64,000 nt of DNA from Schmidtea polychroa (Eukaryota), in contig CM097886.1 of NCBI GenBank assembly GCA_044892525.1, forward strand, positions 161,076,001-161,140,000, in the 5' to 3' direction. The position numbers and the translations under genes are program-made. The notes beneath the pieces were generated by a model, which made no database searches, had not been told where the DNA came from, and was given only the letters and a program-made list of their open reading frames with translations. Position 1 is the first letter of the stretch. Each line of letters starts with the position of its first letter. This document shows positions 23,241 through 54,098 of this stretch, piece by piece.

Positions 23241-23328
23241 ATTGGTCCGCACGAATAAGAATTTGATATATATACAACTACCAAAAACATTAAATTTACT
23301 GTTAACCCCGAGCATTTCATAGGTAAGA
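23241..23328 (+). promoter_or_regulatory. Putative LTR promoter (inverted CCAAT, TATA-like) and leader splice donor
   Basis: ATTGG 23241-45, TATATATA 23267-74, AG|GTAAGA donor at 23323, lying between two copies of the 28-bp repeat tttactgttaaccccgagcatttcatag (23295-23322, 23344-23371). Function is inferred. Confidence 0.4.
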
Positions 23329-36000: not shown

Positions 36001-39000
36001 GATAACGCACCCAGATAACACGATGCCATCCCTCCCATTACCAGATGGACACTTTGGTAGAATGGTAGGAGAAGTGATGTACACATACCAGTGTACCAAG
36101 ACGTATGCACGAATGCCAGAAAAATCCATACTACCCGAAAAGAGATGTGCAAATGAATTAGAAATCCGTTATAAAGGACAAAATCGATTCGTCCAACCAG
36201 TCACTAGAATTATGAATCCAGTGGGTTTCTACCCAAATCTCTTTAACTGTTCTAATGCATACGGACCTTTATATGAAAGACCCGATGGGAAATGGATGAT
36301 GTTACCGGGAAAAACCATATCCGAGGAACCCAAGAAATTTGGATTAATAGAACTCGCCACAGAGCTGGATTTCAAACCTATAGACGTGTCAAACGGTGGT
36401 ATGTATTCCCCAGAAGATCTAGAAACAGCACGACTTAACGTACTCTTTCCAGCCAGACGAGAATCCATTTTGTCAAATATGGTTACAATAACGGGGGGAA
36501 CAAACTATCAATCAGGCCCGAATTACGAGCTGCTATTATCGCCAGACCATTTTCAACAAGCTACGTCAAACATGATGAAAGCAATGTGGGGAAGATTCTT
36601 AGTTTTTGGACAAATGATGGCCGGGATATTAGGGATCATACTCATAATTCAGATAGTCAGAGTAATACTAACACAAATGTTAGCTTGTTTCGATATATAC
36701 AAGCGGGAAAAGAAAGTTAACTGGAAAATGATAGTAGGCTTCTTACCATTTTTAGCTAAAACCATGGTATTACATGGTCACTCAAAAGACATTCATCGGA
36801 TAAAGCGATTGATTAAAATATTAACAAAGATTAAAGGAACCGACGAGGAAGTAGGCAGACGATTCCGGAAAGTAATGTACGATGAAGCAACAAGACGACA
36901 ATTGAAAAAGAATAAGCCAAAATTCTTGGACCGATTTAGAAGCCAATCATCTAACAGCGATAGTGACGACGATGATAACGGGAACGATAAATGTCTTTAT
37001 CCAAACAGAAACCCAAACGAAAAACCAATGGAAACGGCACCATATTGGGAAAAGGAAAAGACAAACACCTGGATCGCCAATGGAAGCTATATACCACCGG
37101 ATATCGTGGGACCACAAGCAGCTTTGACCATGACACAAAATATGTATCCGCAATTACCGAGTCAACCCGGTATGCATTATATGCCAATACGACGTACCAA
37201 AAGTGTAGATCAAGCAGATGACGTAAGAACAATCGCAGCAATGAGTCTACCTGGAGGTCCAGCAGTAACAGTTATGATTCAAATCAATGGTAAAGAAACC
37301 AATGCTATGATAGACACAGGAGCTAATGTATCAGCGATAGCGATTAATCAAATTCCCAGTAAACACTGGAAAGATATCGAATCAACAACAATTCACATCA
37401 TAGCATGTAGTAAAGAAACAGTGGACGTGGTCGGAAGATGGTGGACTACATTGAGATACCAGGACAACGAAATTGAAACGTATTTGGCAGTAATACCAAA
37501 ACTTAGCGTACCATGCATAATCGGAACGGACCTGATGCCAGAATTATTAAAAGAAGTCGTAATAGACTTAACAACTATGTGTTTAAAAGACAAAACCGGT
37601 AGAATATGCAAAATGAATGCAGTCATCAGATGTCCAGAAAAAATAATAGTACCAGCAAAATCGCAGATGATTTGTCAGATAAAAGTGGATACGGGTATGG
37701 AAGGAGAAGTTATCTTTGAACCAAGCAAGTCATTCGAAAAGCGACGAGAATTACCACTCGCAAGAGAAATAATCACAATAAACCAAGAAGGAGTGATACC
37801 GCTCAACATCACGAATTTCGAAGAGGAAGACAAAATCATTTATGAGAACGAAAAATTGGGAAGATTGACCCCAATGATGGACATAGAATTACCGAAAGTG
37901 ACCAACGAGATGATCAAAGATGATGAATTATGGACAATAGATAGTATGTTGTTGACGAATGATGAAAAGAAAAAATTACACCGATTGTTGGTAGAATATA
38001 AAGATATATTCGCCATCTCAGACTTAGACTTGGGTACATGCGATGTTACCCTACATGCAATACCCCTCATAGATGAAACTCCAATTGCATTAAGACCATA
38101 CAAGCTAGCAGAAATGCAAAAAGAAATAGCCGAAGCCGAAGTACAAAAGATGCTGGACGCAAAAGTAATCGAACCAAGTTGCTCACCTTGGCAATTCCCA
38201 GTGGTCATGGTGAAAAAGAAAGATGGCACCCAACGATTCTGTATCGATTATCGGAAGTTAAACGCAGTGACCAAGAGAGATACCTATCCATTGCCGGACA
38301 TCAATGAGATGTTATTGATGTTGCAAGGGGCAGCATATTTTACTTCTTTAGATCTAAAAAGTGGATACTGGCAGATTAAAGTCAAAGATGAGGACAAAGA
38401 GAAAACAGCTTTCACGTTGGGACGAGATCTATATCAATTCAGGAAAATGCCATTTGGACTGACCAACGCACCAGCATCATTTCAACGGTGTATGAACTTT
38501 GTCACCCATGGAATCAAACAATGTATGGTATATATTGATGATTTACTAATCTATTCAGCGACATTTGAACAACATCTGGAAGATATCCGAAACGTATTTA
38601 TTAGATTAAGACAGTGGAAACTCAAACTCAAACCATCAAAATGCGATTGGGCAAAGGAAAAAGTCACGTTTTTAGGACACATAGTGTCAGCTAAAGGAAA
38701 GGAGCCAGATCCAAGAAACATTGAGAAAATAAAAACATGTCCAGCACCGAAAACTGTCACCCAAGTGCAGGAATTTCTAGGATTATGCGGATACTATCGC
38801 AAATTTATCAAAAATTATGCAGGAATTGCAAAACCAATCCAGGAATTAGTAAAGAAGGATATTTCGTTCATTTGGGAAAAAGAACAACAACAGGCGTTCG
38901 AAACGCTGAGGGATAAACTAATCGAAGCACCTATCCTCGTACACCCAGATTTTAAGAAGCCATTTCTATTGGCAACGGATGCAAGCGGGTACGCGGCAGG

Positions 39001-42000
39001 CGCGATTCTGGGACAATTAGACGATGAGGGAAAAGAGAGAGTAATCGGGTATTACAGTCGAACATTCAAAAAGCACGAAAAGAACTATTCGGTAACAGAA
39101 CGAGAAGCATTGGCTATAATACAAGCTATCAAACACTTCCGATATTTACTATGGGGACATGAGATATGCATAACCACAGATCATCAACCATTAGTGTGGT
39201 TAGGGCAACATAAAGAAGCGTCCAGTAGACTGATGCGATGGGCCATGCAATTGCAAGAATACTCCCCATTTATAAAATTCAAAGCGGGAAGAGCAAATGC
39301 CAACGCCGATTGTATGTCAAGATTTATTTTCCCAGATTTGGTGGATTCAGAAATGCAACGCATATGCTTAATAGTAGCGGAAGATTTGGATTTCTGTCAA
39401 TTGCGAAAGGACCAACAAGAGGACGCGGAATTAAAACAAATTATCGATTATGTAAAAACCGGAAAGACAGATGTATATGCGAAAGACCAAAAATTAAAAG
39501 AACATATGGATAAACACCGACACCGATATGTTATAGAGAAAGATTGGTTGCTGATAATGGATGGGGAAAAACGATTAATGTGTATACCGGAAAACCGACG
39601 AAAAGAGCTACTAACGCAATATCACGACGGGAGATTGGGAGGACATATGTCATCGAAAAAGACGTTAGCAAGAATGAAACAGAAATATTTTTGGCCTACG
39701 TTAACTGAAGATGTAACCGAATGGGTAAAAAATTGTCTAACTTGTGCAACCAGGAAGAATACGGGATCAAAATGGAAAGCACCTTTAACGCCAATGCCAG
39801 TACCAATAGAACCAATGACAATGATATCCATGGACGTAGTTGGTCCACTACCAGAGTCAGATAAAGGAAACGTTTACATTCTGGTGATCACAGACTTTCT
39901 TACGAAATTTCCAGAAGCATTCGCGATGCCAGACCAAAAAGCTAAAACAATCGCAAAAATTTTGGTAGAAGAGATATGTTGCCGATATGGAACACCAAAA
40001 CAAATCTTAACCGATCAGGGAACTAATTTTATGAGTGAGATAATGAGCGAAGTAACAAATTACTTCAAAATAGCAAAACTAAGAACATCTCCATACCACC
40101 CTCAAACCAATGGGATGACGGAAAGATTTAATGGAACACTTATACAAATGTTATCAAACTACGTTGACCGTCACCAACGAGATTGGGACGAATATATAAA
40201 CCTATGTCTTATGGCGTACAGAATGTCGATTCACGCATCAACGAAAATGAGCCCATTCAAATTAATGTACGGAAGAGAATGTAACATGCCAATGGACCTG
40301 GAATACCAACCACCGATATCGCAGTATATGGAGATCGATGATTATGTTACGAAATTCAAGGAAAGAATGCAAGAAATTTGGGAAACTGCGGGATTAAATA
40401 TCAAGTTCTACCAGGAAAGTTATAAAGATTTACACGATCGAAAGAAAAACGTGAAGCAACATACGTTCCAAACAGGTGATTGGGTAATGATAGAAACCCC
40501 GGAATTAATTCCAGGAACCACAAAAAAGTTACAACGCAACGGAAAAGGACCATATGAGATCTTATTCGTAGGCGAAACTAATGTAAGAGTGAAATTGGTA
40601 AATAACCCCTTTACCAGACCAATATACGTAAACGTGGCACGATGCAAATCAATTCCAAAAACAGCCACTAGTCAACCAGAAGGCCGTACATTAACCACAC
40701 GTTCGCAAACCTACCGAATGAACATGATGCAACAACTCGCAGAACCGATCACTAGACGATTAGGTATCCAACCATCAGAAGCGGAAAAGATTGTAAAAGA
40801 GGTAAAAATTAAAATACCTGGATGGGCAAAAGATCGATTAGATTTCGAAATATTAGGAGGATTATTGACGATGATCGAGAACTATGCAAATAGAGAAAGG
40901 ACACACCCATTATTGCGAGTAGTCAAAAGCCAATGGCCAATATTAATTACCATAACAGATCATTACGGAGACACACCACTACACAAACTCATGAAAGTAG
41001 GTAACAACGAGCAAATACTAGAAACAATAGAAGCATTTCACGACTGCAAGCGATCAACAGAACAAACAAACAACCAAGGTTACACACCATTAATGATAGC
41101 CGCAAACAGAGGCAAAACAAAAGACATTATAACCGCATTACTCGATACCGGATCGAAAATAACTACACAAGACCACGAGCGGAAAAACGCTCTACATCAT
41201 GCTATCGGAGGGAGAAGTACCGAGGCGTTCACGTCATTGATGGAACTACTATCATATGAGGACAATCGGGAAGTCGGAAACATGTATGATGGATTGTTAA
41301 CAGCGATCAAAGAAAAACTGACGACAATTACCGGAATGTTAATTACATGGCGAAATCCAATTCGAAACGATTATATGATCAACGTAAACGAAGCGTTCAC
41401 GAGAGGAGAGAACACGCTGATGAGAGAAGCTATGAAAGGACATCATTTATTCGAAATCCCGAATCAATTACTAGAACGAGGGATAAAATTCACAAATCAC
41501 AAAGACGAACAGTTAACAAAAAAGCGAATCGACACATTCGAAAAATCACTATTCCAATTTACTAACCAAGTACGAAATAAATATTGGGAAACGGTAAGTG
41601 TGTTATATATGATGGACACAATGAATAACATCCGCGAGAATTACATGGATATTATCCAAGTACTTACAGCAGAGGAACGAATCAATAATCCAAACGGAAA
41701 GAAAACGAAAATAAGGTATGAGAAATCCAGGGAATCAAAGTCAACAACGAACCAAACGGTCATAAACAACGTCATCGAAACCAAATCAATGAGTATAGAT
41801 CAAGAGGCAATAATACGCAAAGCAAAAGAAGTGTTCTTTGAGGAAATGCTAGAGTTGTCAGACGAAATAATATTGTCAAAAATAATAAAAGCTGTACATA
41901 CATACGCAAGAGATCAAACCACGGGTTTAGATATCGGGAAAATCAAAACCTTCTTGCCTCGAGCATTTACGATGGTAACGAAGGATTCCAGAACACCCCT

Positions 42001-43936
42001 ACAACAAGCAATACTAGCAGCGAAAGAAAATAGAGCAATAACGATCGTGAGAATCCTTGGAGATATGGGCGAGGAAACCAACACGAAAAATGAACAAGGT
42101 GAAACCGCTATGATGTATGCAGCTATAACGAAAATACACCCAAAAACACTCCACATCCTACATCAATCAGGATCGAAACTAGACGAAAAGTCCAATGAAG
42201 GAAATTCCACCTTGGACTGGGCAACCATACAGCCAAACTTAGAAATGATCAGATTTATTTGCAAAAATGCGACAAAAGAAGAAGTTGAAAATATGTGCAA
42301 AAACACATCTCAGTTTCAATGGAATACGGTACGGAAAAATCTAGAAGCAATGAAATTATTATTAACCTGGAGAGTACCACAAAATAATAAATATGCGATA
42401 AATGTAAACGAATTCTACGAAAACGGAGAAAATGCGATGGTAAAGAATACCCTAACTAAGGGGGGGACGCCTAAAATTATTTTATTAGTATTAAATAGAG
42501 AAGACCTAAAATTCACGCAAAATCAGAACGAGCAACAACGAATTGGGAAACATCGTCGTATGCAATTGAGAGAGTTAGTTAAAGAATGGAATAGAAAGAG
42601 ACATGCTGCAACGGGTAGAAAAGAGTTTGAATTCGAAGCAAAATTAGCAAGAAACAGAGTGCTAACAGCATATCGCAGATTATTGAACGATATAAATGTC
42701 GAGGACGACATTTTAAATGACAGCGGGGGAGATAAATACGATGACAATGATGGAAAAGGCCGGAAAGAGGATAAAGAGAAAAGAGAACCGGAAGAGGATA
42801 AACCGGAAAACAAGGATTTGGATACGAAAAGAGAGGGAAACAGGCCGGGAACCAAGACCAAAGAGGAGGAAAAATCGAATAATGGAAAACAGAGGGTATG
42901 CCTACCTTTCACTAACAAAGAAATAGAGACAAATATGATATTAATGATAATTATGCTTACCATGATAGAGTTAGTAACAGCTCAGGGAGGGACGAGAACG
43001 ATAAAAGAAACCAAAGAAGCGGAGAATCAAGATAGCAAAGAGGATGAACTAAAGCAAGAAAAGAAAAAGCAAGCACAAGAGCAGCAGTGGGATTTAAAGG
43101 AAGAATGGGACTTAAAGGAAAGGTGCATACTAGGAAGATGCATGTCTAGAGCGTATCAGAAACTAGTACTGATAAATGAGGACACAGAACCAATAACAGA
43201 AGTAAGAATACAAGAAGCATACCGAAATCGAGACGGGAAGAGAATAACGAACGTCAAAGGAAAAGAGGTACACCTAGGAAAAGGTGGTGAAGTAGTAATA
43301 ACGCAGCTCCAACCAAGAAAAGAGCACAAAGTCTGTATTTCAAGATTAGGACCGGGGGAGAGATGCCATCAATATGTGACGCAGCAGCAGCCCCCGAAGG
43401 AATATACGGTTTGTATCTGGAGAAACGAATCAAAAAGAGAATGCCGACGATACCCGGGGAAAAGAGGAAAGAAAAGGAAAAACCGCGACGAAAAGGACGA
43501 AGGAGGAAAGCACAAGAAAACCGGCGAGGAAGCTCAAGACAACTATGTTTCGGAAGAAGAGATGGAAAAAATACAAAAGATGGCAAAGGAGGGTATGAAC
43601 GAGGAAATAGCAAGAATACGGGAAAGGATGAAAGGAAACGGCAAAAGAGGGAACGAGAAAAGTACAGAAGCAATATCAACATTAACAAACCAGGAAAAAC
43701 CAGAGAGTATAAGCGTGAAGCAGATGATGTGGATCAGTGGGATAATAATAACAGGGGCATTCCTAATCATAACGGGGGGAACAATAAAAATAATTAAGGA
43801 TAAACGACATCGCGGAGAACTAGAGATGACTCGAATCAGAAATTTCCAACATCGAGTGAAACGACCAAGTGATATCAAACAAGAACAGTGGGTGGAGGCC
43901 TGGAACGCTCAGCGCCCTCCAAACTCACGTATATAG
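30083..43936 (+). CDS. 4,617-aa Gag-Env-Pol-ankyrin polyprotein of the giant retroelement
   Basis: One uninterrupted ORF: capsid-like N-terminus, 3 CCHC knuckles, Ubl domains, glycoprotein, DTG protease, YIDD RT, TDAS RNase H, HHCC/DDE/GPY integrase, ankyrin repeats, C-terminal TM. Confidence 0.95.
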   Translation: MTNVVKTDEYKEKFRGEPFNGNANKLATFITNFEVYITVCGWTPEAISKRMPLFLCDSALEVYLEAKERDTKLEKWEDIKTFLKKTFGASKPINQALGELANRKQRANESITLYASELRRLAKKAMNGKLPEENLIGYFIEGLRREEVRASVGCQMCKTLEEAIDWATRCELHLPAQMNIMQEEGRIATAIAKADNGDNNNQEPKMNQFIPGAHQIFKPPQGRSNGNNGNRNNPNNENNFNNRRNMNDNKQCRTCGKPGHWDRDCYRNSNCNRCGRRGHTENVCQLRGCFNCGQPGHISRDCRERGQQQRPPQRNNNYIANPQRQSNPNEGKQMNVMQEISQMKQMMQQMMRPRQESAPQQTQNIRMMRSTENLNNYEVHQHVQEWQRLQAEEERIKRERNQQRQEQPLRINMMKLVKDMKSQYCYNYGKSPRVVPMTEPEKVKEITTEMKTENSTTISKGNQRIQKIFWKKIKDKIEKEHNKAKTETEDENNKSEEQTSQLNHQMLQESESEETTIFERKKLKRVPRMRNLQINMMKRTKDVASSDEEEDYVSSLGGEILQPNEISEPSKGEIKEEESGNEITSESEDEDIEIKLRKAREEAIKQVAEILPVVVRNQEFIDVIPFRRFVQKVMKLERNEKDLIPNEEKPIIKNYMEKMKQADTTRYVIKIGTSRGLERMWIKNTVTDELFDWIREHLGSSRKKEYLYQYQGEQIKPDMHLVDALIWPGETQILKLHKEKQPANLYDWAKDAKAEYDFNIKLKLEQIKQCTLRRNLDKLIKQIQEQVEDNWDLLITRRAPAMYELMSRLRDTEMLRMSDWRTIKLIHKYGRLKETQPQRLEITIWLPNEEKRRIKMSNQSTVDDLVSKINQEITEKVRSESSDGMVDDVVMMYDKIILRAEDDTSLSEMGMWDNHQIIRIVPMDEFRTRDVTYQKEIRDRMKTLYQKSTEIIEIHQQWLKEKELQGKITKLNTRSCRRTPWERVWNAESKEWEIRKGTFVETDIGETESESEEEEEEPPKYEEEAREQTSDDEGETDVTSESENEARHIHAMRKKEREYADMDGEEATEAREREEKERYKQLGDILAMGAKNQKRQVVALANIILKTSENIHNLRGMAKAIEEYRQYNEWYPEQLEQIIRKWRNQEWAQDTQERYHIRIKYPDKSIEELEVHPTTKIRELKKKLAYETPFHLQLFGKSLDDNADVGITPMRLEETNVLTMAETLGKPLKRKSKIIKPTKGSLSTPSPNKAPSKSNETEEVEEIILEDSDDEPGERSPLLVRWPTGAEMWTNNQPSTSYQQPTKLNSKEIIDNTTETETDEQFQKQREPTKVTPESQTDKIIDEWNEWLRNNDSSLPRTDNERNPNYENTREAGTMMEKRAKGRPKKQGEKSEFKTKEQLKQEQGQVRLEKLDKIVWDLKEAQPTIERGEKWIRELLKDMLIITNPQLRRLWQRKVASTEARQLWHIVSGIIPKLIKEKTKTTKTDWGETKKVIEQLTTNANDDEHHLVVITYLMYNLMGLAARKIPNKQFANHVEMTVSIIENTIEPHIIRAGGWKRLIQAPRKNEQERSMQVRLKKLLNELEWELPMKDPASRKASINSLMMTMMIWMLCTSGATGFTIYDCDNMIMRDKYSLRDIEECRQASPNKLDIVRTKVTYHVYQESDFIRTQARECVVSKKVLAYYCGQYSYSTLILPGLDKEIVSIQREDCKELFRTGALKMHNGVTIHGQTGMIKTESVYVSGKVKSSDGSCNGGTYTIRGEVISGVVVIESYTVELKEYEAQFDANNYQMKTNPTCRATENVCRTGVSTIIYEANTQKCRLQLLKSALFNEVKGEIYENENDEDGNDRVRMRNGKPMPPSPREKRLSTQKTPTALITDDPDLGMRFIKEKETTKCDSIVYKTNYAGIYMSRQIIDRAVGKIATEDVKLYLYANNKMDFLFHRGQTTLQKVYYDLIQNDCSLNKEILKTKLAIAITHPDNTMPSLPLPDGHFGRMVGEVMYTYQCTKTYARMPEKSILPEKRCANELEIRYKGQNRFVQPVTRIMNPVGFYPNLFNCSNAYGPLYERPDGKWMMLPGKTISEEPKKFGLIELATELDFKPIDVSNGGMYSPEDLETARLNVLFPARRESILSNMVTITGGTNYQSGPNYELLLSPDHFQQATSNMMKAMWGRFLVFGQMMAGILGIILIIQIVRVILTQMLACFDIYKREKKVNWKMIVGFLPFLAKTMVLHGHSKDIHRIKRLIKILTKIKGTDEEVGRRFRKVMYDEATRRQLKKNKPKFLDRFRSQSSNSDSDDDDNGNDKCLYPNRNPNEKPMETAPYWEKEKTNTWIANGSYIPPDIVGPQAALTMTQNMYPQLPSQPGMHYMPIRRTKSVDQADDVRTIAAMSLPGGPAVTVMIQINGKETNAMIDTGANVSAIAINQIPSKHWKDIESTTIHIIACSKETVDVVGRWWTTLRYQDNEIETYLAVIPKLSVPCIIGTDLMPELLKEVVIDLTTMCLKDKTGRICKMNAVIRCPEKIIVPAKSQMICQIKVDTGMEGEVIFEPSKSFEKRRELPLAREIITINQEGVIPLNITNFEEEDKIIYENEKLGRLTPMMDIELPKVTNEMIKDDELWTIDSMLLTNDEKKKLHRLLVEYKDIFAISDLDLGTCDVTLHAIPLIDETPIALRPYKLAEMQKEIAEAEVQKMLDAKVIEPSCSPWQFPVVMVKKKDGTQRFCIDYRKLNAVTKRDTYPLPDINEMLLMLQGAAYFTSLDLKSGYWQIKVKDEDKEKTAFTLGRDLYQFRKMPFGLTNAPASFQRCMNFVTHGIKQCMVYIDDLLIYSATFEQHLEDIRNVFIRLRQWKLKLKPSKCDWAKEKVTFLGHIVSAKGKEPDPRNIEKIKTCPAPKTVTQVQEFLGLCGYYRKFIKNYAGIAKPIQELVKKDISFIWEKEQQQAFETLRDKLIEAPILVHPDFKKPFLLATDASGYAAGAILGQLDDEGKERVIGYYSRTFKKHEKNYSVTEREALAIIQAIKHFRYLLWGHEICITTDHQPLVWLGQHKEASSRLMRWAMQLQEYSPFIKFKAGRANANADCMSRFIFPDLVDSEMQRICLIVAEDLDFCQLRKDQQEDAELKQIIDYVKTGKTDVYAKDQKLKEHMDKHRHRYVIEKDWLLIMDGEKRLMCIPENRRKELLTQYHDGRLGGHMSSKKTLARMKQKYFWPTLTEDVTEWVKNCLTCATRKNTGSKWKAPLTPMPVPIEPMTMISMDVVGPLPESDKGNVYILVITDFLTKFPEAFAMPDQKAKTIAKILVEEICCRYGTPKQILTDQGTNFMSEIMSEVTNYFKIAKLRTSPYHPQTNGMTERFNGTLIQMLSNYVDRHQRDWDEYINLCLMAYRMSIHASTKMSPFKLMYGRECNMPMDLEYQPPISQYMEIDDYVTKFKERMQEIWETAGLNIKFYQESYKDLHDRKKNVKQHTFQTGDWVMIETPELIPGTTKKLQRNGKGPYEILFVGETNVRVKLVNNPFTRPIYVNVARCKSIPKTATSQPEGRTLTTRSQTYRMNMMQQLAEPITRRLGIQPSEAEKIVKEVKIKIPGWAKDRLDFEILGGLLTMIENYANRERTHPLLRVVKSQWPILITITDHYGDTPLHKLMKVGNNEQILETIEAFHDCKRSTEQTNNQGYTPLMIAANRGKTKDIITALLDTGSKITTQDHERKNALHHAIGGRSTEAFTSLMELLSYEDNREVGNMYDGLLTAIKEKLTTITGMLITWRNPIRNDYMINVNEAFTRGENTLMREAMKGHHLFEIPNQLLERGIKFTNHKDEQLTKKRIDTFEKSLFQFTNQVRNKYWETVSVLYMMDTMNNIRENYMDIIQVLTAEERINNPNGKKTKIRYEKSRESKSTTNQTVINNVIETKSMSIDQEAIIRKAKEVFFEEMLELSDEIILSKIIKAVHTYARDQTTGLDIGKIKTFLPRAFTMVTKDSRTPLQQAILAAKENRAITIVRILGDMGEETNTKNEQGETAMMYAAITKIHPKTLHILHQSGSKLDEKSNEGNSTLDWATIQPNLEMIRFICKNATKEEVENMCKNTSQFQWNTVRKNLEAMKLLLTWRVPQNNKYAINVNEFYENGENAMVKNTLTKGGTPKIILLVLNREDLKFTQNQNEQQRIGKHRRMQLRELVKEWNRKRHAATGRKEFEFEAKLARNRVLTAYRRLLNDINVEDDILNDSGGDKYDDNDGKGRKEDKEKREPEEDKPENKDLDTKREGNRPGTKTKEEEKSNNGKQRVCLPFTNKEIETNMILMIIMLTMIELVTAQGGTRTIKETKEAENQDSKEDELKQEKKKQAQEQQWDLKEEWDLKERCILGRCMSRAYQKLVLINEDTEPITEVRIQEAYRNRDGKRITNVKGKEVHLGKGGEVVITQLQPRKEHKVCISRLGPGERCHQYVTQQQPPKEYTVCIWRNESKRECRRYPGKRGKKRKNRDEKDEGGKHKKTGEEAQDNYVSEEEMEKIQKMAKEGMNEEIARIRERMKGNGKRGNEKSTEAISTLTNQEKPESISVKQMMWISGIIITGAFLIITGGTIKIIKDKRHRGELEMTRIRNFQHRVKRPSDIKQEQWVEAWNAQRPPNSRI
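30836..30988 (+). other. Gag nucleocapsid: three CCHC zinc knuckles
   Basis: CRTCGKPGHWDRDC, CNRCGRRGHTENVC, CFNCGQPGHISRDC. Confidence 0.95.
32078..33742 (+). other. Three ubiquitin/SUMO-like domains within the polyprotein (32078-32290, 32600-32848, 33542-33742)
   Basis: Beta-grasp-like patterns: YVIKI...YLYQYQGEQIKPDMHLVDALI; LEITIWLPN...TVDDLVSKI...DDTSLSEMGM; IRIKYPD...HPTTKIRELKKKL...LQLFGKSLDD. Confidence 0.6.
34300..34760 (+). other. Bcl-2-like helical domain within the polyprotein, preceded by an AT-hook-like motif (34214-34240)
   Basis: BH2-like IEPHIIRAGGWKRLI; weak BH1-like EHHLVVITYL; KRAKGRPKK. Confidence 0.5.
34874..36780 (+). other. Envelope glycoprotein, chuvirus/herpes-gB-like (class III fusion), with internal signal peptide and C-terminal TM
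   Basis: Hydrophobic INSLMMTMMIWMLCTSGATG followed by FTIYDC...SLRDIEEC...ECVV...YYCGQYS...EDCKELFRTG; later YANNKMDF, QNDC, GEVMYTYQC, GGMYSPEDL, LFPARR; TM FLVFGQMMAGILGIILIIQIVRVIL (36596-36690). The cysteine spacing is as I recall for chuvirus-type glycoproteins. Confidence 0.85.
37262..40650 (+). other. Pol region: aspartic protease, dUTPase-like spacer, RT, RNase H, integrase
   Basis: MIDTGA (D at 37313); PYKL and RFCIDYRKLN; YIDD 38531-42; LATDASG; HDGRLGGH...CLTC; SMDVVG, TDQG, GMTERFN; GKGPY. Confidence 0.97.
40958..42560 (+). other. Two tandem ~340-aa ankyrin-repeat modules after integrase
   Basis: GDTPLH, GYTPLMIAA, KNALHHA and RTPLQQA, GETAMMYAA, GNSTLDWA; paired motifs are exactly 1,020 nt apart. 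Confidence 0.85.
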
Positions 43937-44096: not shown

Positions 44097-44456
44097 ATGG
44101 ATCAAGGAAATAACGAAATGAACCACAACACAGTAACTGAAGAATTATGGAAGCAACAATGTGCCGTATTAGCACAATTAGTGTCCAATTTGCAAGAACA
44201 AGGACTGACGATGCACAGAAACCTGATCGAGAGTATGAACAGAGGATTTAGTTATTTGAAGATAATTGAAGACCAGAGGTTAAAAATCGAACAAATGCAA
44301 AGAGAGATAGAGAGGATAACCCAATATAGCCGTCGGCAGGAAATTGAAATAGACCGAATGAGGGAGGAAGCAGAACAGACAGAAATAGAAGACTGGTCGG
44401 AATGGCTAATGAATAGAGAGGAGAGCGGACACGAAGCCGACTCTTCCGAACCCTAA
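44097..44456 (+). CDS. Accessory ORF, ~119-aa coiled-coil protein of unknown function
   Basis: The track start is a TTG (44073); the first ATG is at 44097. Heptad-rich, with an acidic tail. Confidence 0.65.
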   Translation: MDQGNNEMNHNTVTEELWKQQCAVLAQLVSNLQEQGLTMHRNLIESMNRGFSYLKIIEDQRLKIEQMQREIERITQYSRRQEIEIDRMREEAEQTEIEDWSEWLMNREESGHEADSSEP

Positions 44457-44541
44457 ACCAAACCTAGCTTAAAATGTAAATAATTGTAAATAAAATATCG
44501 AACCTGTATCGATAAGAACTATTTGTACATATAATTATAGA

Positions 44542-45930
44542 ATGGATAAACGACAAAGAGAAGAGTTCAGAGAGATTGTCGAGCAAGTCCGAAAATCTAC
44601 AACGATCAGAATACACAAACATGTTATGTGCGGAATATGTGAAAAGTTGTTAAAGGAACCTCACCAAACGCAATGTGGATGCAGAGCATGTAAAGAATGT
44701 ATCAGTGAAGCAATAAAGAATAGACCACAGAGGTGCCCGGTGTGTAAAGAGACACTAATATCGAGTTTAGAAGACACTAACGAGGATAAAGCCGCAGTGA
44801 AAGACATGTTAAACACCAACCTGGGATGCAAAAATGCCCCATGCGAATGGAAAGGAGTAATATGGAAGGTAGTACAACATATGGGAGAATGTATGTACAG
44901 AATTGGCCAGTGTGAAAGGTGCCATAAAACCATTCGAGCAAGCGAAGAAAAAGAGCATCAAAGGCAGTGTGAAGAGAGATTGGAAAGATGTGAACACTGT
45001 GGAGAAATAGATACGTGGATAAATCTCACCCTCAAACATCACAATGTCCAAGAGGAGAGAGTATGTGCGGAGTTCAGTGGGGAATGCCCAAACGGATGTA
45101 ACCAAGGGGAAATAATGAAGGTGGCACAGCATCTAAGGGAATGCGAAAAGAAAAGAATGACATGTGTACTAGGTAGATGGGGTTGTCAGAAATTACTACA
45201 CCGAGGTGAGTTACCACATCATTTAGTAGAAAATGCTTCAACTCACGCAGAAATGTGGTCGACTGCGTTACAAGAAAGCGAAGAGAAAGTAAAACAAATG
45301 GAGATAGAGATAACATCGTTGAAAGTATTAGTCAAAGAACTACTAGAAGAAAGGAAAGCGTTCGAAGAAGCCCGAGCAAACATAAAGATGCAAATAAACC
45401 GAACAGAAATTAGTAATAATCAGGCCAAGGAGCTACATCAGAAAATACGGGAAATAAATCTACATGAGATAACCCCAACAGCACCCTACATATGGAAAAT
45501 AACGGGAGTAAAAGAAAGAATACGAAGAGCAAAAACCGGAGAAGAGACAAGAATAACAAGTCCTACATTCCATTCTTGGAAAAATGGGTACAAAATGAAA
45601 ATGAAGATATATCCCAACGGGGACGGAACCGGATTAGATACGCACTTTTCGATTTTCTTTCTGTTATGTAAAGGAGAATACGACGAAATATTAGAATGGC
45701 CGTTCCAGGCAAAAATCGATATTACTCTGATGAGCAACCAAAGTATACATGAGCAAAGCTTCAAAACAACGGGGAATCAAATAGCTTACCAGAGGCCCCT
45801 CAACGAAGAAGGATCAGCAACAGGAGCACCTACGTTCATCTCACAACAAAGAGTAGAAGATATGGCGAGAAATGATACCATATATATCAAGATGACCGTG
45901 AGGAAAGAGGAGAAGGGTAGAACGGAATAA
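44542..45930 (+). CDS. TRAF: Intronless TRAF-family protein (RING, TRAF zinc fingers, coiled coil, MATH/TRAF-C)
   Basis: RING CGICEKLL..PHQTQCGCRACKEC...CPVC (44629-44745); several CxxxC/H-x3-C fingers; MATH YIWKI...SPTF...GYKMKMKIYPNGDGTG..THFSIFF.LCKGEYDEILEWPF. Confidence 0.93.
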   Translation: MDKRQREEFREIVEQVRKSTTIRIHKHVMCGICEKLLKEPHQTQCGCRACKECISEAIKNRPQRCPVCKETLISSLEDTNEDKAAVKDMLNTNLGCKNAPCEWKGVIWKVVQHMGECMYRIGQCERCHKTIRASEEKEHQRQCEERLERCEHCGEIDTWINLTLKHHNVQEERVCAEFSGECPNGCNQGEIMKVAQHLRECEKKRMTCVLGRWGCQKLLHRGELPHHLVENASTHAEMWSTALQESEEKVKQMEIEITSLKVLVKELLEERKAFEEARANIKMQINRTEISNNQAKELHQKIREINLHEITPTAPYIWKITGVKERIRRAKTGEETRITSPTFHSWKNGYKMKMKIYPNGDGTGLDTHFSIFFLLCKGEYDEILEWPFQAKIDITLMSNQSIHEQSFKTTGNQIAYQRPLNEEGSATGAPTFISQQRVEDMARNDTIYIKMTVRKEEKGRTE

Positions 45931-46123
45931 CCAATCGAATAATGTTGTATATAATAATCTGTACATATCGGTGTATATAACCAATAAAATATTATATAAT
46001 AATAGTATGAAAACCCTAAATACGAAAACCCAAAAATGATGCGAAAATTTCCCAAGAAACAGTAAATAATGAATAAATTCCTTTTTCATAATAAAAAGAT
46101 TAATCGATGTCTATGATTTAGAG

Positions 46124-47179
46124 ATGACACAAGAGAAAATAACCGAAATTGCGATAGACCCAACCAATGTCAACAAGACACAAATTCCCCGAGAACATAA
46201 CAAAAAATGGAACAAAGTAATGTTCCAACTAACTAATCTCACCCGAAACTACATCGAAGAAGCTAGAGAAGAGGAGAACAGTAAATATCAATGGCTAATC
46301 CACAATTTAAGAGAGGAAGCCGAAGCATGTAAAAGAGCATCAAAATGGGCATCATTAGAAAATACCCGCCAAGAAGCGCACAGCCACTACTTAAAGCAGC
46401 TAGTGCAGGAAGCGAGAAAGAGACTTACCGATGAGAACACCAAGCGCGAAGCGGAAAAGCAAATAGAAGGAAGGAAAATGATGCACTTAGTGGCAGAAGC
46501 GAGAAAATGGAAAAGACAAAACAGAGAAATGAAAAAAGAGATGAAAGAATTGCCCATGAGACTCGGATATGAAAGCGAACAAGGTAAATGGGAGGAGAAT
46601 TTAATAATAAAGGAAGAATTGAAAAGGTTGAGAAAGGTCGCCGCCCGAAGCCAAACCTGGCAAACAAAGGCTATGGAGTTTGAGCGACATTTGGCAATGA
46701 AGTGCGACATAAGAGAGCACGAGAATGCCGCAATGGAAGAGAGGATAACCCAACAAGCGGGACGGGTTGTGGAATTAGTAAATCAGGTAGAAGAGATGAA
46801 AAGAGACCTTAATGGATTACAAGGATCGCTGGAACAAAGAAACATGGTCCTAGCGGGAAAAAACAGAAAATTAGAAAACGAAAGGAAAATGTACAACGAA
46901 AATATTAAAAACTTAGAAATAGAAATTGAAAAATGGAAGGGCGACGAGAAAATCAAGGCCCTAGACAAACAGATAGAAGCGAAAGATGAAGAGACAAGGT
47001 ATCTCACCTATCTGCTCGACGAGGAATTGAATATCACTCGAGCTCTAAGAGACGAAGTTAGTGAACTGAGAGCTCAAATTCCCCAATATTACCTACCATA
47101 CGACCCTATTGCGATACAGTTACATTCCGCGGTCGATAGTGATGAAGGTTATGTAGGCCAGGAGGAAACCTTCGTATGA
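46124..47179 (+). CDS. Accessory ORF, 351-aa long coiled-coil protein
   Basis: ATG-initiated, E/K/R/L heptad-rich, same A-rich codon style as the polyprotein. Confidence 0.75.
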   Translation: MTQEKITEIAIDPTNVNKTQIPREHNKKWNKVMFQLTNLTRNYIEEAREEENSKYQWLIHNLREEAEACKRASKWASLENTRQEAHSHYLKQLVQEARKRLTDENTKREAEKQIEGRKMMHLVAEARKWKRQNREMKKEMKELPMRLGYESEQGKWEENLIIKEELKRLRKVAARSQTWQTKAMEFERHLAMKCDIREHENAAMEERITQQAGRVVELVNQVEEMKRDLNGLQGSLEQRNMVLAGKNRKLENERKMYNENIKNLEIEIEKWKGDEKIKALDKQIEAKDEETRYLTYLLDEELNITRALRDEVSELRAQIPQYYLPYDPIAIQLHSAVDSDEGYVGQEETFV

Positions 47180-47348: not shown

Positions 47349-48047
47349 ATGAAAATCGAGGAAATGATAGAAATTATGAGCGACGTAGAAGAGGGAGAGA
47401 TTGAGGCAGAAACAACAGAAACACAAACGCTAAAGGCCGAGTTACGGGAAGAGAAATACGAAAACGGGAGATTAATAAACAAATACCTGGAGGACCGGAA
47501 AATGATAAAGGTGTTAAAGAAAGAGTGCGAAGCGTTGGGGGAAATAAAAAGAGAAACGGAAGAGGAAAATGAATGGCTACACGAACAAAGGAAGCGAGGG
47601 AAAAACTGGGAAAAGATAGCGGAAGAACTATGGAAAGAGAGGGCAAGCTTCAAAGCAAAGGAGGTAATCCAAGACTACTGGAAAACTGAGGCGAAGGAGC
47701 GCCAAACAGCTATAAATAAATTAAAACGACAACTAGAAGAAAACCAACGGGAAAGTAAAGAAATGAGGAAGTGGGTCCGCAAATATAGAGAAATAGAAAG
47801 AAAACATCAACAACAAAATTACCTGCAAGAAAACGAACAAGATCTCCTACAAATCGAGCTAAAAAGAAACCTTGAAAAGAAAAGGGAAGAAATTAGACGC
47901 TTGGAAAAGGAAATTAGACATCTAAAGAGAGAAGCCCGTGAAAAAGACCGACAATTGGAAATGCTGCCCGAGTTAAGACACAGGGTAATTAAAGCAGAGT
48001 CCACCTTGATGAGAATCGGCGAAAATAATCCAAATCAGAACCATTAA
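47349..48047 (+). CDS. Accessory ORF, 232-aa coiled-coil protein
   Basis: ATG-initiated, almost entirely heptad/charged. Confidence 0.75.
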   Translation: MKIEEMIEIMSDVEEGEIEAETTETQTLKAELREEKYENGRLINKYLEDRKMIKVLKKECEALGEIKRETEEENEWLHEQRKRGKNWEKIAEELWKERASFKAKEVIQDYWKTEAKERQTAINKLKRQLEENQRESKEMRKWVRKYREIERKHQQQNYLQENEQDLLQIELKRNLEKKREEIRRLEKEIRHLKREAREKDRQLEMLPELRHRVIKAESTLMRIGENNPNQNH

Positions 48048-48102
48048 ATTAAGGGTCATTAAAACCAATTGTAAATAAACATAATGAATGTATAATAGTA
48101 TC

Positions 48103-48744
48103 ATGCGAGGCGAGATGATGATAACAATGATGGTATTGATGATTCTGATGGAGAGCAAACAAATAGACGCCCAACCGAAAATCGTACGAGATTACCGAAA
48201 TCAAAATCAAGAACCTAAACAAGAATCCAGTCAATGCACATACCCGATGACCGTAAAAACCCATATCATCCAAACCATTCAATCAACCCGATCACACATC
48301 AACAACATCCAAACAATGTGTAAAAAGAATCCCATTTGTAAAATGATAAACAAACAAATCCTCGAACAAATTCAACAATTCGACCAGTTGGAACAACAAA
48401 TGCAACAAGAGAATTTTGGAAATCTGGTAGAAAAGCCAAAAATACCTCCCGAAATCAATGACACCCATTATCTCATATATGTGGTGATCGCAGAAACCCT
48501 CCTCCTATGTCTACCAATATTCATGAAAATTTACGAAGTTCGAAATAGATGTAGAGTCTCGACATCAATAAGAGTAACCTCGAACCAAAATCCTCAAGAA
48601 GTGCCCCTGACAAATCTTAACCGACCTCGAACCCCGAGTAATCAACCAATCCAGCCGAAATCTAATAGTCAGACCTATCTCAACATCAATACCCAAACCA
48701 ACCAACAGCCGCCAGCAGAAGCATCAATGGTTGACAGTTCATAA
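48103..48744 (+). CDS. Accessory ORF, small type-I membrane protein (signal peptide plus TM)
   Basis: MMITMMVLMILMESKQIDAQ signal-like; TM YLIYVVIAETLLLCLPIFM; P/Q/N-rich tail. The start could be 48088 or 48103. Confidence 0.7.
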   Translation: MRGEMMITMMVLMILMESKQIDAQPKIVRDYRNQNQEPKQESSQCTYPMTVKTHIIQTIQSTRSHINNIQTMCKKNPICKMINKQILEQIQQFDQLEQQMQQENFGNLVEKPKIPPEINDTHYLIYVVIAETLLLCLPIFMKIYEVRNRCRVSTSIRVTSNQNPQEVPLTNLNRPRTPSNQPIQPKSNSQTYLNINTQTNQQPPAEASMVDSS

Positions 48745-48969: not shown

Positions 48970-51900
48970 TGTTGGGCTGAGTCGAAAATTTAATCGTTGA
49001 AAAATAAGAAAGTAGGGAAGTAGAACATTAAGAAAAATAAAAATAAAATAAATAAAATCAGAAATAAAATAGAATAAGGTATAAGGAAAATAATAATTAA
49101 GACATAAGAATTAAAACAAAAAATAAAATTAAGAAAAGATTAAAATAGAACAAGTTGACAAATAAATAAAGAGGAATTCAAGAAATAATAAGGAAATTAA
49201 GGAAATAAATAGAAAAACATATTAAAAATAAAGAAAATAAGGAGAAAACAACCTAAAAACAAGAAAATTATATTAAATTAATAGAAATAAGCGGTACTCA
49301 ACTCTGATTGGTCCGCACGAATAAGAATTTGATATATATACAACTACCAAAAACATTAAATTTACTGTTAACCCCGAGCATTTCATAGGTAAGAAAAATG
49401 TTTACTGTTTTTACTGTTAACCCCGAGCATTTCATAGACATCTACAACTCACGGAGACTTATTTCAAGGATCAGCAATACCAGTAGAGCAACAGTTAATT
49501 CGAAAAACTTCACAGCAATTCGAACTCAGTCACAGCAATCGACATTCGACGAACTATCATCAGACTAATTTGGAACGACTAACGTTAATTTTCCGATTCA
49601 GCCTAATTCCATAGTAAGGGATTTTTATTTATGATATTGTTTTTCGAAGTTAATAGTAAATATGTATATTTAATGAGCAATTAAACTTTTAAATTTAACC
49701 AGACTCTCTTTTCATTTGATCCTGAATAACGATTTTGATAAAGTAAATAATTTAAATGTTTAAAAGTATTTATTGGTAACAGGTGAACTCTTACATAATT
49801 TTTATGGATATTTATTTTGAAGTGGTAGTTTTATGATTTCTAATATTAACGAGAAACGTGGCGTTGAGATACTCCATGTCATGGTGTGAGGTGCCTTCGG
49901 GAGCTCAGCCGGTGGACATGGAGTATTTCAATCACGCAGCTAGATTGGGCCGAAATGTGAAGGCTTCTTCACGGGTCCAATTGCTGAAGGACTTAAAATC
50001 TGTCAGAGTACCGAAATATAGACCGAAAGGAAACCTTCTGAAATTTTCGAAAATAGGATATGTGCTTCACAGCGACTGAGGGAGTTCTCATATTAACTCT
50101 GTATTGTCCAGAGTCGTCTTACAAGACATTCATGCCACTTCTGTCTATAAATCCGAACTTACCATGTGGGGGAAAATACCATTAAACATCCATCGCTGGT
50201 TTTCTAACATATCGAGAAGTTGAAATTGCATTCGGTAGATTTTTGAAAAAGTAACTCTAATTTAGGTCATCTCTTTCAGATGCGACATCCAAATCCTAGC
50301 ATATGATGAGGAATTTACAATAAGGGAAAAATAAAACATAAAACCACAATAATACTGTATTCAATCACATATATTAACAAAATCTGGTAATACCCATCGA
50401 ATAATGTTCATGCTATTGCGTCGAAATATCCACTACTGAAATATGCTTCATAGAGTCTAGTTGGCTGGTTCGTAGAGATCTCCCATCGTTCAAAAACATC
50501 CAATATTGAGGAAATTACGAGTCGTAGTAAATAAATCCAACATCATAAGCTCAGATGGGAATCGACACGCGATGTAACATTTGCAGTTCGCTCAGTACGG
50601 TTGATAGTTACAGATAAAATTTCCATCGAACAGGCACCCATACATACAGACATACTGCTAACATAACTATGAGTAGCGTCATCCGGTCAGAAATATGCAT
50701 GAGAAACAGCAGAATCATTCCGAATGCCTCTCACCGCAGGGAATGCCGCCATGTGTCACCCTCTCTAGTGTGTGAGTAGTAATCAGTAGTCATATTAGAT
50801 AATGCTGACATGAGATGTGACTTCCAGATGACTGACTCTTAAATTTCACTACTGATAAAGGTCATTCGTACCACTAAAAAGATAAGCCAAAATAACCAGT
50901 AACCGACTACTAAGATAAGAGACTCTCTAAAGTGCACTCATTAAAGATAATTTTGCTTAAATTAAATATTCTAAATAAAAATCGAAATTGTTGAAGGGGT
51001 ATTTTAATTAATAACCGAAAATTCAAACCAAACTTTATAACTAAACCATAGGAAGTTTCACCTAAGTGTTGTAGAGGTTTATCGTAATTCTGATTAGATG
51101 TTACAAATAATAGTAGTAGCCTTTGAGCCAAATTTAAATTAACTAAAGCATCCACAGGAATTTTTGGGTTATAAAATAGCTAGTAATATTGTATTTAAAT
51201 TTCTCATATTCCATGTAAACTACGTATCGCAATAGAAAACTAAATCCGATAACAAATTATTATGTAATTACAATGTTTTTACGATGCCATATTTCTACGA
51301 CGATATCACCGTATGGTATGGATAAGGGGTGATCATAAAATAGTGACGTATAGTTTATACGAAATTACGAGTTGTTACTTATTCCGCTACTTGAGGTAAG
51401 GGTGCAAGTTTTTACTAGTTGCATTTGGTCCAAAAACCTTATTTTGCATTAGAATAACAACAAATAATCAGCGAAATTTAAACGAAGTGTAGTATAGTGT
51501 ATTTGTAATGAAATAGGTTTATTCACTCCGGCATGAACAAATCCGTAAATTGCCTTTATGTGCGATAGATAGAAATCCAACTCGAACGCGATAGACGAAA
51601 ATTAAAATTTTTACAAATAATTTGCATTCGTCAGGGAAGCAATCAGGGCGTTGAGGAATAATTTTTGTAAAGGATACGTAAAATATTAGTAATCAGGGGT
51701 GAAGGGAGGGATCCTGTTTCATCGACTCGTCTTGTTTTCTTCCAGCACTAAGTATCCAATAGCGAATAAACCGTATATCTGATCCGAAATTTTTGGATAT
51801 AGTCATCATAGTTTTCTTCTTTAGCCATCCATATGTTATCAAACCACAAATCAGCTCTACGTCCCTGCTTCTCCTGCTCAGATAAAAATGCAGTGATTAA

Positions 51901-53119
51901 AGATCTTCAGGCCCAGATCGGTCGATATAAACGAAAAATCGACGAACTGGAAGGGACATGGTTTAGTCCCGCTCGGATGAAGGAGATCCAAAAGAAGCTC
52001 GATCGTAGCGAGCATTGCCGGGACGCGCTAATATCTGAGAGCCGTGCCCAAAGAAGTCTAATCAGAGAACAATCCGAGGCACTGCATAAGGTTTACGTGC
52101 AGGCGGCTACAACCCGAAAAATAGTGCAGGTTCCCATCCGAGAGGCCGATGACATCTTTCCGCCTCATCACAACCTTTCCTCGAATCCATCTCCACCGTT
52201 CAAGAGACCGTGCCAAGACTGCGTCGAAAACGAATTGTCCCCCAAGCGACCAGATGTTGTCGTCACGGGTACCAGTAAGCCCCCCACTGCTAGTCCATCT
52301 GTATCAGTCACCCTTCTGCAAGTGGCATCTTCAAGCAAACCCAAGCGCAAACAACTCTCTCGTGCAGAGCGCAAGAAGAGACAGCGCGAACGCGCCACTA
52401 CAAAGCCAAACATCCCATCAATAGAGGATTCAACCAACGGTGGCAACTCTCACGTGTCCATCGACCTAACAACGGGACCCTCAGCACGAATCATATCAGC
52501 CGCTGGCGTAACGTGGGAAGAGAACGCTTCCGAGTTTTTTAACCTCGACGAATTATTCGCCGACGCTGAATGGGAGAAACAATAGAACCCCAGTGGCGGT
52601 CAGGACGAAGAACAAGGATCCGATCTATGTTGATTATGATGTTTTCTCTTCTTTCGACAAACATTAGTAAAGTGTACAGCTGAATCCTTGTGTCATAACG
52701 TTGAAATTAATAAATCTTGTTGTCTTACACGTTTTCGTTCATGAATAATTAGACTTTAATTAAGTGGGTTGAGTAGAGAACCCGCAAGATCTAGTGAGAA
52801 ATTCCCAATTTGCATTCAGCGAATCCTGATAAGTGGTTGTGTAAGGAAATGGACGTAAGCCCTTCTATCGGCAGTCGTGAATGGGAAGTCGAGGCCTCAG
52901 CAAGGAGTAGTTTTAAGGCAGAAGCTCACCTGCTTGCTGGTGTCTCGCCTGCATAGTGCAGTACCAACGTGAAGTGATTCACGGGCACTATGTTGGAAGA
53001 AAGTTATGTGGGGTTTCACTCCAGGTTGACAAATCGGTGGCGCCTTTTATTCGAGATGGACAATCAACCCTTAGACCCGTCAATATGGTAGAGCGGTCAG
53101 CCGAGGTGTAACCCCAACA
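48970..53119 (+). repeat. 3' LTR (4,150 bp)
   Basis: Same termini as the 5' LTR; LTR ORFs recur at +26,066 (23792/49858, 24844/50910, 25767/51833). Confidence 0.97.
51833..52585 (+). CDS. LTR-encoded 250-aa protein (3' LTR copy)
   Basis: Same protein as 25767-26519; one synonymous difference seen (25994 G vs 52060 A). Confidence 0.7.
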   Translation: MLSNHKSALRPCFSCSDKNAVIKDLQAQIGRYKRKIDELEGTWFSPARMKEIQKKLDRSEHCRDALISESRAQRSLIREQSEALHKVYVQAATTRKIVQVPIREADDIFPPHHNLSSNPSPPFKRPCQDCVENELSPKRPDVVVTGTSKPPTASPSVSVTLLQVASSSKPKRKQLSRAERKKRQRERATTKPNIPSIEDSTNGGNSHVSIDLTTGPSARIISAAGVTWEENASEFFNLDELFADAEWEKQ

Positions 53120-54098
53120 ATTCATAGCTTTGATTTATTTATTTATGCATATTGGAGACAACCCACACTATTTTTATCTTTGGACAATCAGGCGAATATT
53201 GAATCTCATTGAACAAAACATAAAGTGGAGGGTTCGATTGATGGGGTCACCAACTAGTCCACGTAGAGACGCACTAGGGAAGTTCTTCGAGCCATATCAC
53301 ATTCTGGACTGACAGACAGGTCTCCTCCTGGAGCTCATTGTTGGTCAATAGGTTGTGTTTTTTGGAATCCGGCATAGCCCGGTGACCCGTCTGGTAGAAA
53401 ACTACTTTTGGTTCAATAGGTCAAGCCAGCATAGGAAACCCTGCGTAAACCCATTCAAAATGACCGTGTTGCGAGCGTGATAGGTGTTTTGAGACATAAG
53501 TTAGATTAAAATTACCAGGGCCAAGACTTGGGGATTATCAAAAGAATAAGGACAGATTTCAGTAAGACTTTAGAGTACGGGACAATGTCTAAATTTGTTA
53601 TCGACGAAGTTCTGAACACTACACAATTTAAGGATGTTCTGAGATACGAATATCTCATTTTTTAACACTAATTGATATTATAGAACATAAAATTAGGGTT
53701 GCGAAGAAAATTCCCAGTTGAACAATTTCACAAAATAGTCACCGTAGCGCGACGTCATTGTTTGGTTATTGAGTTGGTGATAAATTTAAATGTTTACTCT
53801 GACTCCAAGCGTGTCTTTGATCGATTCACAAATAACACTTGACAACAGAAATTTCTATTGATAATCACAAATAAACTTTCACTTTACACTGACAATCAAT
53901 TCAACAGTCTGCTTGGTGACTATACAATGCTTATTACAACACTCAGTGAGGAATAGCACTTGCGTATAACACCGGATTAAAAGATCACAAATTACTGATT
54001 GGTTTATTGGTCTTCACAATTATTTTTACAATTCTTTTTCACAATCGTTTCTCCAACAACGTTTCGTCCGACGTTGTCTAATTTTTCTTCAATAATTT

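Follow-up and report, generated by a model that had tools for sequence, protein, structure and literature searches.

A Burro-type giant retrotransposon of Schmidtea polychroa carries a full-length TRAF gene with an all-cysteine RING common to host TRAFs

The element at the locus

The window, i.e. the whole 64,000-nucleotide stretch of the Schmidtea polychroa genome which was analysed (contig CM097886.1, positions 161,076,001 to 161,140,000), contains an intact Burro-type Ty3/gypsy element of 30,216 bp, which encloses a TRAF ORF (Table 1). The element boundaries were determined by self-comparison: two LTRs of 4,150 bp each differ by one mismatch, have the ends TG...CA and are flanked by the 4-bp target duplication ATTC. 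The insertion is intact and very recent. An earlier note on this DNA had placed the TRAF ORF inside LTR boundaries and named a retroelement as its carrier, which is correct; that the carrier is a Burro element, for which MATH/TRAF cargo is published, had not been recognised.

The polyprotein of 4,617 AA contains, in Pfam order, gag, CCHC knuckles, an in-frame Monjiviricetes-type fusion glycoprotein (env), protease, RT, RNase H, integrase and ankyrin repeats. A primer-binding-site-like stretch, which may match a tRNA-Pro site, is found 7 nt past the 5' LTR (27061-27078); no clear polypurine tract was found before the 3' LTR. The zf-C3HC4_3 domain of the 161-AA accessory ORF belongs to the same Pfam family as the RING of the IAP in family B (see below). 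The 250-AA ORF present in each LTR has a codon style unlike that of the internal ORFs, and weak homologues occur in sister families. Outside the element, positions 60537-62299 (-) contain pieces of another gypsy-like pol, which by sequence comprises RT, RNase H and integrase and is unrelated to that of the element. An AT-rich ORF of 267 AA (58153-58956, +), which starts like a signal peptide and has no Pfam match, is probably a host gene. No tRNA genes were found within the 64-kb window.

Table 1. Features of the element and of its TRAF ORF (window positions).
Position	Strand	Feature	Evidence or remark
22900..22903	.	Left target-site duplication ATTC	flanks element
22904..27053	+	5' LTR, 4,150 bp, TG...CA, 1 mismatch to 3' LTR	self-comparison
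25767..26519	+	250-AA ORF within LTR, repeated at 51833-52585	no Pfam match
27392..27877	+	161-AA accessory ORF, C-terminal zf-C3HC4_3 RING, no BIR	Pfam
28485..28823	+	74-bp tandem repeat, 4.6 copies, leader	repeat
30083..43936	+	4,617-AA polyprotein, no MATH	Pfam
44097..44456	+	119-AA accessory ORF (orf119), directly upstream of TRAF, conserved in both element families	sequence comparison
44457..44541	+	AT-rich spacer, 85 nt, two TGTAAATA motifs, AATAAA, TAG one base before the TRAF ATG	candidate splice/trans-splice acceptor, inferred
44542..45930	+	TRAF ORF, full-length, 462 AA	ORF list, Pfam, model, Foldseek
44629..44745	+	All-cysteine RING, AA 30-68; Cys47 (44680-44682) in place of canonical His	Pfam, alignment
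44827..45249	+	Zinc fingers of TRAF type, AA 96-236; ligand spacing suggests about five	alignment
45235..45462	+	Coiled coil (TRAF-N), predicted helix AA 232-307	structure model
45487..45906	+	MATH/TRAF-C, AA 316-455; element-specific loss of conserved P-D and Ser at 409-414	Pfam, alignment, Foldseek
46124..47179	+	351-AA accessory ORF, coiled-coil-like by composition, common to family B	sequence
47349..48047	+	232-AA accessory ORF, coiled-coil-like	sequence
48088..48744	+	218-AA accessory ORF, N-terminal and internal hydrophobic stretches	sequence reading
48970..53119	+	3' LTR	self-comparison
53120..53123	.	Right target-site duplication ATTC	flanks element

Relationship to known Burro elements

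Burro1/GYPSM1 and Burro-2 to Burro-4 are giant gypsy LTR retrotransposons of Schmidtea mediterranea (PMC6431247, describing Jurka 2007 and Grohme 2018). According to this source, such elements exceed 30 kb and have multi-kb LTRs, a single huge polyprotein (gag, mononegavirus-type in-frame env, PR-RT-RH-IN, ankyrin) and accessory ORFs, and MATH_TRAF_C cargo is already noted for them. The window element corresponds to this description with its size of ~30 kb, multi-kb LTRs and target duplication, a polyprotein of > 4,500 AA with the published domain order, and an apoptosis/ubiquitin cargo consisting of the TRAF ORF and the 161-AA RING ORF. The candidate region for the Bcl-2-like region reported for Burro had no Pfam, PDB or Atlas match; the published call was made with HHpred.

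As described in PMC6431247, Burro1 carries MATH_TRAF_C within ORF1 and a BIR, whereas a Burro-like element of Dugesia tigrina has MATH_TRAF_C in a separate upstream accessory ORF, its ORF1 being without this domain. In the window, neither MATH in the polyprotein nor a BIR ORF was found, and the TRAF, complete with RING, ZnF, CC and MATH, has a separate ORF of its own downstream of the polyprotein. The position of MATH_TRAF_C off ORF1, in an accessory ORF of its own, is a likeness to the Dugesia tigrina element, but the latter ORF lies upstream and is described as the MATH_TRAF_C domain alone. Because the window family lacks the polyprotein MATH and the BIR, the window element represents a sister family and is not Burro1 itself.

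A MATH profile search in the same genome identified a second, Burro1-like family (family B; the window family is termed family A). It has an open frame of 4,791 AA with an internal MATH, and a TRAF of 474 AA, which has the same place in the element behind the same small ORF and is directly followed by a BIR-RING IAP of 392 AA; both Burro1 features are thus present in family B. The TRAF-IAP gene pair can be inspected in L156 and L157 (G000:C1:96640001-96659800). The RTs of the two families are 88-89% identical, the TRAFs only 29%.

Burro elements and their MATH/TRAF cargo are already published (PMC6431247), and neither the kind of element nor the kind of capture is new. In the literature searched, no account was found of a full-length downstream TRAF, of selection on it, of a triclad all-Cys RING or of element versus host counts, some of which Grohme 2018 and Lee 2026 may hold. 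TRAF and MATH are unmentioned in the available part of PMC11410931.

Domains, fold and codon style of the TRAF ORF

The TRAF ORF is a single uninterrupted frame. Pfam detected a RING (AA 29-68) and a MATH domain (AA 316-453); zf-TRAF did not reach the Pfam threshold of E 0.01 in the window copy, but its Cys/His ligands align with those of TRAF zinc fingers. Since a fold computed from the single sequence had a pLDDT of 39.9, it was replaced by a monomer model based on a 106-row alignment (mean pLDDT 94, pTM 0.51), which contains a MATH sandwich preceded by a long helix (AA 232-307). Foldseek placed the TRAF domains of TRAF3 and TRAF2 on top (E 3e-19). The best solved relatives are the TRAF domains of TRAF3, TRAF2 and TRAF1 and the RING-finger fragments of TRAF5, TRAF6 and TRAF2. 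The order RING, TRAF zinc fingers, coiled coil and C-terminal MATH is that of TRAF2/3/5-like proteins, and the full architecture proposed before is borne out by Pfam, ligand alignment, model and Foldseek.

At four-fold degenerate sites, the TRAF ORF (A 0.50, T 0.11) is similar to the polyprotein (A 0.53, T 0.12). In 13 host TRAF-like frames, A ranges over 0.32-0.46 and T over 0.16-0.41, T being at least 0.26 in 12. The A-rich codon style which the earlier note had ascribed to TRAF and element alike is therefore a common property of both and differs from that of host TRAF frames.

Copies across the genome

A genome search yielded 1,925 candidates, the best-scoring 92 of which, a subset biased to intact copies, are full-length matches of 94-100% identity, 91 of them stop-free. 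Twenty of the most divergent copies were taken with flanks, and all 20 are colinear with the element as far as the 3' LTR. A search with P0001 recovered more subfamilies at 67-85% identity, again with element flanks. The pattern QTxCGCRxC matched 615 times genome-wide, the control pattern not once. Every fifth of the first 100 places listed, all on C1, was sampled (n = 20): among the matches listed, orf119 is present upstream in 20/20 and integrase in 19/20, and 12 places belong to family A and 8 to family B. Three pairs of TRAF copies are spaced by ~26.2 kb (G000:C4:46256274/46282455, C4:69865757/69892041 and C2:177699304/177725516), as expected for tandem elements with one common LTR.

A one-off insertion, i.e. 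absence of the TRAF from sister copies, is rejected, since the divergent colinear copies and, among the matches listed, all 20 sampled places carry it in the element context and sister copies have it at the same element position. The TRAF is a standing, multi-copy accessory gene of the element.

Selection on the element TRAF

All dN/dS values were estimated with NG86 only and every pair uses one common reference, hence the comparisons are non-independent. Against the window copy, dN/dS is 0.13-0.24 for 20 copies of 94-97% identity; for the 29 nearest copies, which are only a few changes apart, it ranges over 0.13-0.73. Of nine distant pairs, the four unsaturated ones (69-85% identity) gave 0.06-0.10, and five were saturated. 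For the pattern-sampled family-A copies, 8/12 have values of 0.07-0.21 and 3/12 are saturated; the remaining value, 0.44, was set aside as it stems from a frameshifted copy (L189) with a misaligned stretch containing 5 stops. In family B, all 11 comparisons fall between 0.05 and 0.19.

Separated by domain, divergent pairs have a RING dN/dS of 0.06-0.16 and two close pairs one of 0.23-0.35, similar to the other domains, and none of the domain-level comparisons exceeds 1. Purifying selection acts on all four TRAF domains. Integrase is under stronger constraint (dN/dS 0.00-0.08), and amino-acid sites diverge ~7 times faster in the TRAF than in integrase. The dN of TRAF and integrase is 0.187 and 0.026 within family A, and 0.70 and 0.106 between families; the ratio is similar, as expected for divergence in place.

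Neutral evolution, which would have spoken against a functional gene, is not observed: dN/dS is mostly 0.05-0.2, RING included. A stop-free full-length TRAF is present in 7/12 sampled family-A and 8/8 sampled family-B copies (one of the latter being the reference copy), and stops, frameshifts or deletions break the TRAF in the other 5/12 of family A. These broken copies could be read as a captured gene carried along without function, but they are expected from decay after insertion, and dN/dS remains well under 1 until synonymous sites saturate, and does so in two families with TRAFs of only 29% identity to each other. The neutral passenger is rejected on these grounds, and we consider it scarcely credible.

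The all-cysteine RING and the host TRAFs

The RING motif reads CGCRAC in the window copy and CGHR[FY]C in the solved TRAF2, TRAF5 and TRAF6. Alanine is a minor allele (5/50 copies; 45/50 have valine). In element copies generally, the residue after the fourth ligand changed from aromatic to A, V, L or M, and the loss of this aromatic residue could affect the RING. The fourth ligand is Cys47 instead of the canonical His, which is non-diagnostic within TRAFs, and an alignment of 15 TRAFs from element, host and databases shows no change at any of the eight RING ligands. Because all eight zinc ligands are kept, the His-to-Cys change is, as judged by alignment, no sign of a dead ligase. Two all-Cys RINGs outside the TRAFs, those of TMEM129 and CNOT4, can be active ligases according to PMC4024746.

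Non-element TRAF loci were collected with the zf-TRAF and MATH profiles (83/87 and 55/150 rows) after dropping rows in element frames. They merge to 119-126 host TRAF loci, a lower bound. A check of 76 partly overlapping host TRAF stretches found no Burro flanks; near three of them lies a piece of an RT that is distant and unrelated. The host loci are AT-rich, clustered and many have an intron. G000 C1 (~68-78 Mb and 259-268 Mb) and C2 (~1-5 Mb and 110-124 Mb) carry large clusters of host TRAF-like genes, in which the RING is all-Cys and the MATH exon is preceded by an intron, and one host frame (L106:8214-9311) contains two tandem MATH domains.

All 43 distinct host TRAF RINGs which were parsed have CGC (42 scored directly; one was mis-parsed and has CGC on reading). 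The motif CGHR[FY]CxxC is absent genome-wide, and none of 12 tested sites from the 131 genome sites with a looser His pattern was TRAF-like. A multi-exon TRAF4-like host gene keeps the His RING; near this gene (L101, G000:C3:47370800-47380700) an unrelated gypsy pol frame lies on the opposite strand. Among 152 database proteins, 111 RINGs were parsed (75 His, 23 Cys, 13 other), and two of the Cys RINGs belong to named TRAFs of Dendrocoelum lacteum, which are the nearest named proteins. A His-to-Cys variant specific to the element, as the earlier note had it, is accordingly rejected: this is the normal state of the host TRAF2/3-like genes (43/43) and is found in the two Dendrocoelum TRAFs. The distribution shows the predicted all-Cys RING to be a triclad TRAF trait. 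Database TRAFs with Cys for His (P0040, P0056, P0059, P0077, P0116) group with canonical TRAFs in the tree, which makes more than one origin of the change probable.

Element amplification had been suspected of inflating TRAF counts. This holds in so far as element copies number several times the host loci found, with roughly 600 element-borne TRAF RING copies in the two families versus about 120 or more host loci. The host expansion itself is real and independent, and with that many real loci its explanation as a pure element artefact is rejected. An expansion of planarian TRAFs has been reported (PMC6109357, PMC7586133), with 121-282 MATH transcripts and an unresolved annotation problem; the available parts of these two papers neither link the expansion to Burro nor mention an all-Cys RING.

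The MATH face

Family A retains K355, Y357, D361, F372, F407 and Y416 of the MATH domain but has T409, T410, Q413 and I414 where the database proteins have P, D, S and S in 77, 67, 72 and 51 of 95 rows, respectively. Host genes keep P409 in 7/7 and the D in 6/7. In family B, the MATH domain is changed further than in family A. In TRAF2 structures, these positions line the receptor-peptide groove, and the binding specificity of the element TRAF may therefore be altered. The element-specific change, as seen in the alignments, is in the predicted peptide-binding face of MATH, not in the RING. To the rewired immune adaptor proposed earlier, the MATH face lends sequence support, and the RING, whose His-to-Cys is host-like, does not.

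The diverged MATH face and the very high copy number would also suit a dominant-negative decoy, in which the element TRAF joins host trimers or occupies receptors without signalling and damps the host response; removal of the RING led to dominant-negative behaviour in another E3 (PMC4024746). We regard such a decoy as unlikely, for the RING is as constrained as the other domains (see dN/dS above) with all its ligands kept, the founding His-to-Cys change is common to host TRAFs, and loss of the RING would be a simpler route to a pure decoy.

Origin of the element TRAF

Trees were calculated from chosen subsets (25, 60, 29, 24 and 16 rows), and the element proteins have a common composition bias, which is a caveat on all of them. 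The element TRAFs of both families and unnamed database relatives form one clade, with support of 95 (quick tree), 99 (midpoint-rooted) and 100/99 (AU-test tree, mixture-model). This clade joins the planarian all-Cys TRAFs with 99 (quick tree), 93/93 (AU-test tree), 98/98 (mixture-model) and a weak 30 (midpoint root), and element and host all-Cys TRAFs are sisters in the quick tree and the AU-test tree. An AU test rejects grouping of the element TRAFs with canonical TRAFs (p = 0.0009). A tree of MATH alone resolves neither element monophyly (47/77) nor the origin of the polyprotein MATH. The host TRAF2/3-like family has, besides the all-Cys RING, the same finger layout including a common insertion; it differs by an identity of only ~26-30%, by host codon style and by the retained P-D and Ser in MATH. 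One old capture from the planarian all-Cys TRAF family followed by divergence in place is likely from these comparisons, and the old host capture suggested in the earlier note agrees with the trees and with the codon style, which matches the element.

The same note had concluded capture of an mRNA from the lack of introns. The ORF is indeed one frame, but this is weak evidence because host TRAFs are often intron-poor: eight run from RING to MATH in one frame, five of them with an in-frame Met before the RING. These eight genes, together with the His-RING TRAF4-like gene being split in exons and the joining of element and host all-Cys TRAFs in 4/4 full-length trees (three strongly, one weakly; sisters in two), might instead suggest the reverse direction, namely that the element lineage seeded the intron-poor all-Cys host TRAFs by domestication. 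We judge this very improbable: the host MATH is closer to the canonical profile (Pfam 141 vs 94 bits) and keeps the ancestral P-D and Ser, the host genes are in host codon style, and under the mixture model host all-Cys monophyly excluding the element clade occurs in only 13% of bootstrap trees.

Spacers and predicted expression

The accessory ORFs at the 3' end are separated by AT-rich spacers of 40-193 nt (window 43937-48087). In 4/5 spacers, a TAG lies 1-2 nt before the ATG, which was reached in 6 of 20,000 shuffles; in family B (L157:4257-7775), a TAG within 0-3 nt of the ATG is present in 4/4 spacers. The motif TGTAAATA occurs five times on the element + strand, always within the spacers of the 3' accessory ORFs. 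This arrangement suggests that the spacer TAGs are candidate acceptors for splicing or trans-splicing, as in an operon. For another flatworm, operons with genes ~100 bp apart have been described (PMC8629364). Contigs from public runs presumed to be RNA cover parts of the TRAF ORF and have no splice joint or leader at its start, which speaks neither for nor against such acceptors.

Possible function

The reading we prefer, and to which we give about even chances, is that of a conserved Burro accessory gene, captured once long ago, which would encode a zinc-binding RING adaptor or ubiquitin ligase with changed binding preference and tune the cell-death and innate signalling of the host to the advantage of the element. 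In this mechanism, the TRAF ORF would be expressed from a processed subgenomic RNA via the TAG acceptor before its ATG, the protein would form trimers, the RING would act as ubiquitin ligase or adaptor, and the changed MATH face would provide altered partners. Host cell-death and innate signalling would be biased in favour of the element, with a putative pro-survival outcome.

The pro-survival direction is proposed by analogy with the Burro1 IAP, which reportedly shields stem cells against apoptosis (Lee et al. 2026 as summarised in PMC13465017), because the TRAF stands directly before a BIR-RING IAP in family B and because planarian TRAFs act in survival and in TBK1 responses (PMC7586133, PMC13563047). 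Like the Burro1 B-IAP, the element TRAF is a captured host cell-death regulator and an accessory gene in the same element group; the B-IAP is a BIR-RING IAP with tested function, while the function of the TRAF is a prediction. The TRAF-IAP pairing does not apply to the window copy, whose family is without BIR and polyprotein MATH. The direction of the effect is uncertain, since a TRAF of a fish virus, ISKNV ORF111L, is reported to bind TRADD and induce apoptosis (PMC3352826). Such fish iridovirus TRAFs are likewise TRAF homologues captured by a genetic parasite of animals, but their carriers are DNA viruses, and the fold matches, 17-23% identical, give no sign of a common capture.

An altered substrate-binding face combined with a conserved RING might also point to a counter-defence ligase, whose MATH would recruit a host restriction or silencing factor for ubiquitination outside TNF/TLR signalling. 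Burro elements are under PIWI control (PMC8532177), and the fast amino-acid evolution of the TRAF relative to integrase would fit such a role. This is rather improbable in our estimate: no domain-level dN/dS exceeds 1, a candidate target was not identified, and the other Burro cargo is apoptosis-related as described in PMC6431247.

Going beyond the preferred adaptor/ligase reading, the captured survival genes of Burro might form a spliced cassette resembling an operon. Its TRAF, captured long ago and shifted in specificity (with the IAP in the Burro1-like family), would outnumber the host TRAFs and contribute strongly, to the benefit of the host, to stem-cell survival and innate signalling; a retro-origin may be common to it and to the intron-poor all-Cys expansion of the host. 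This extended scenario is doubtful.

Implications

The TRAF is a second conserved cargo gene of Burro elements, beside the IAP reported to help stem cells (PMC13465017). Two sources of TRAFs can be separated within one genome, i.e. the roughly 600 element-borne RING copies and the host loci, and planarian TRAF RNAi and expression studies need to distinguish between them. As the all-Cys RING is a trait of triclad TRAFs, the MATH face is the place to seek rewiring of the element TRAF.
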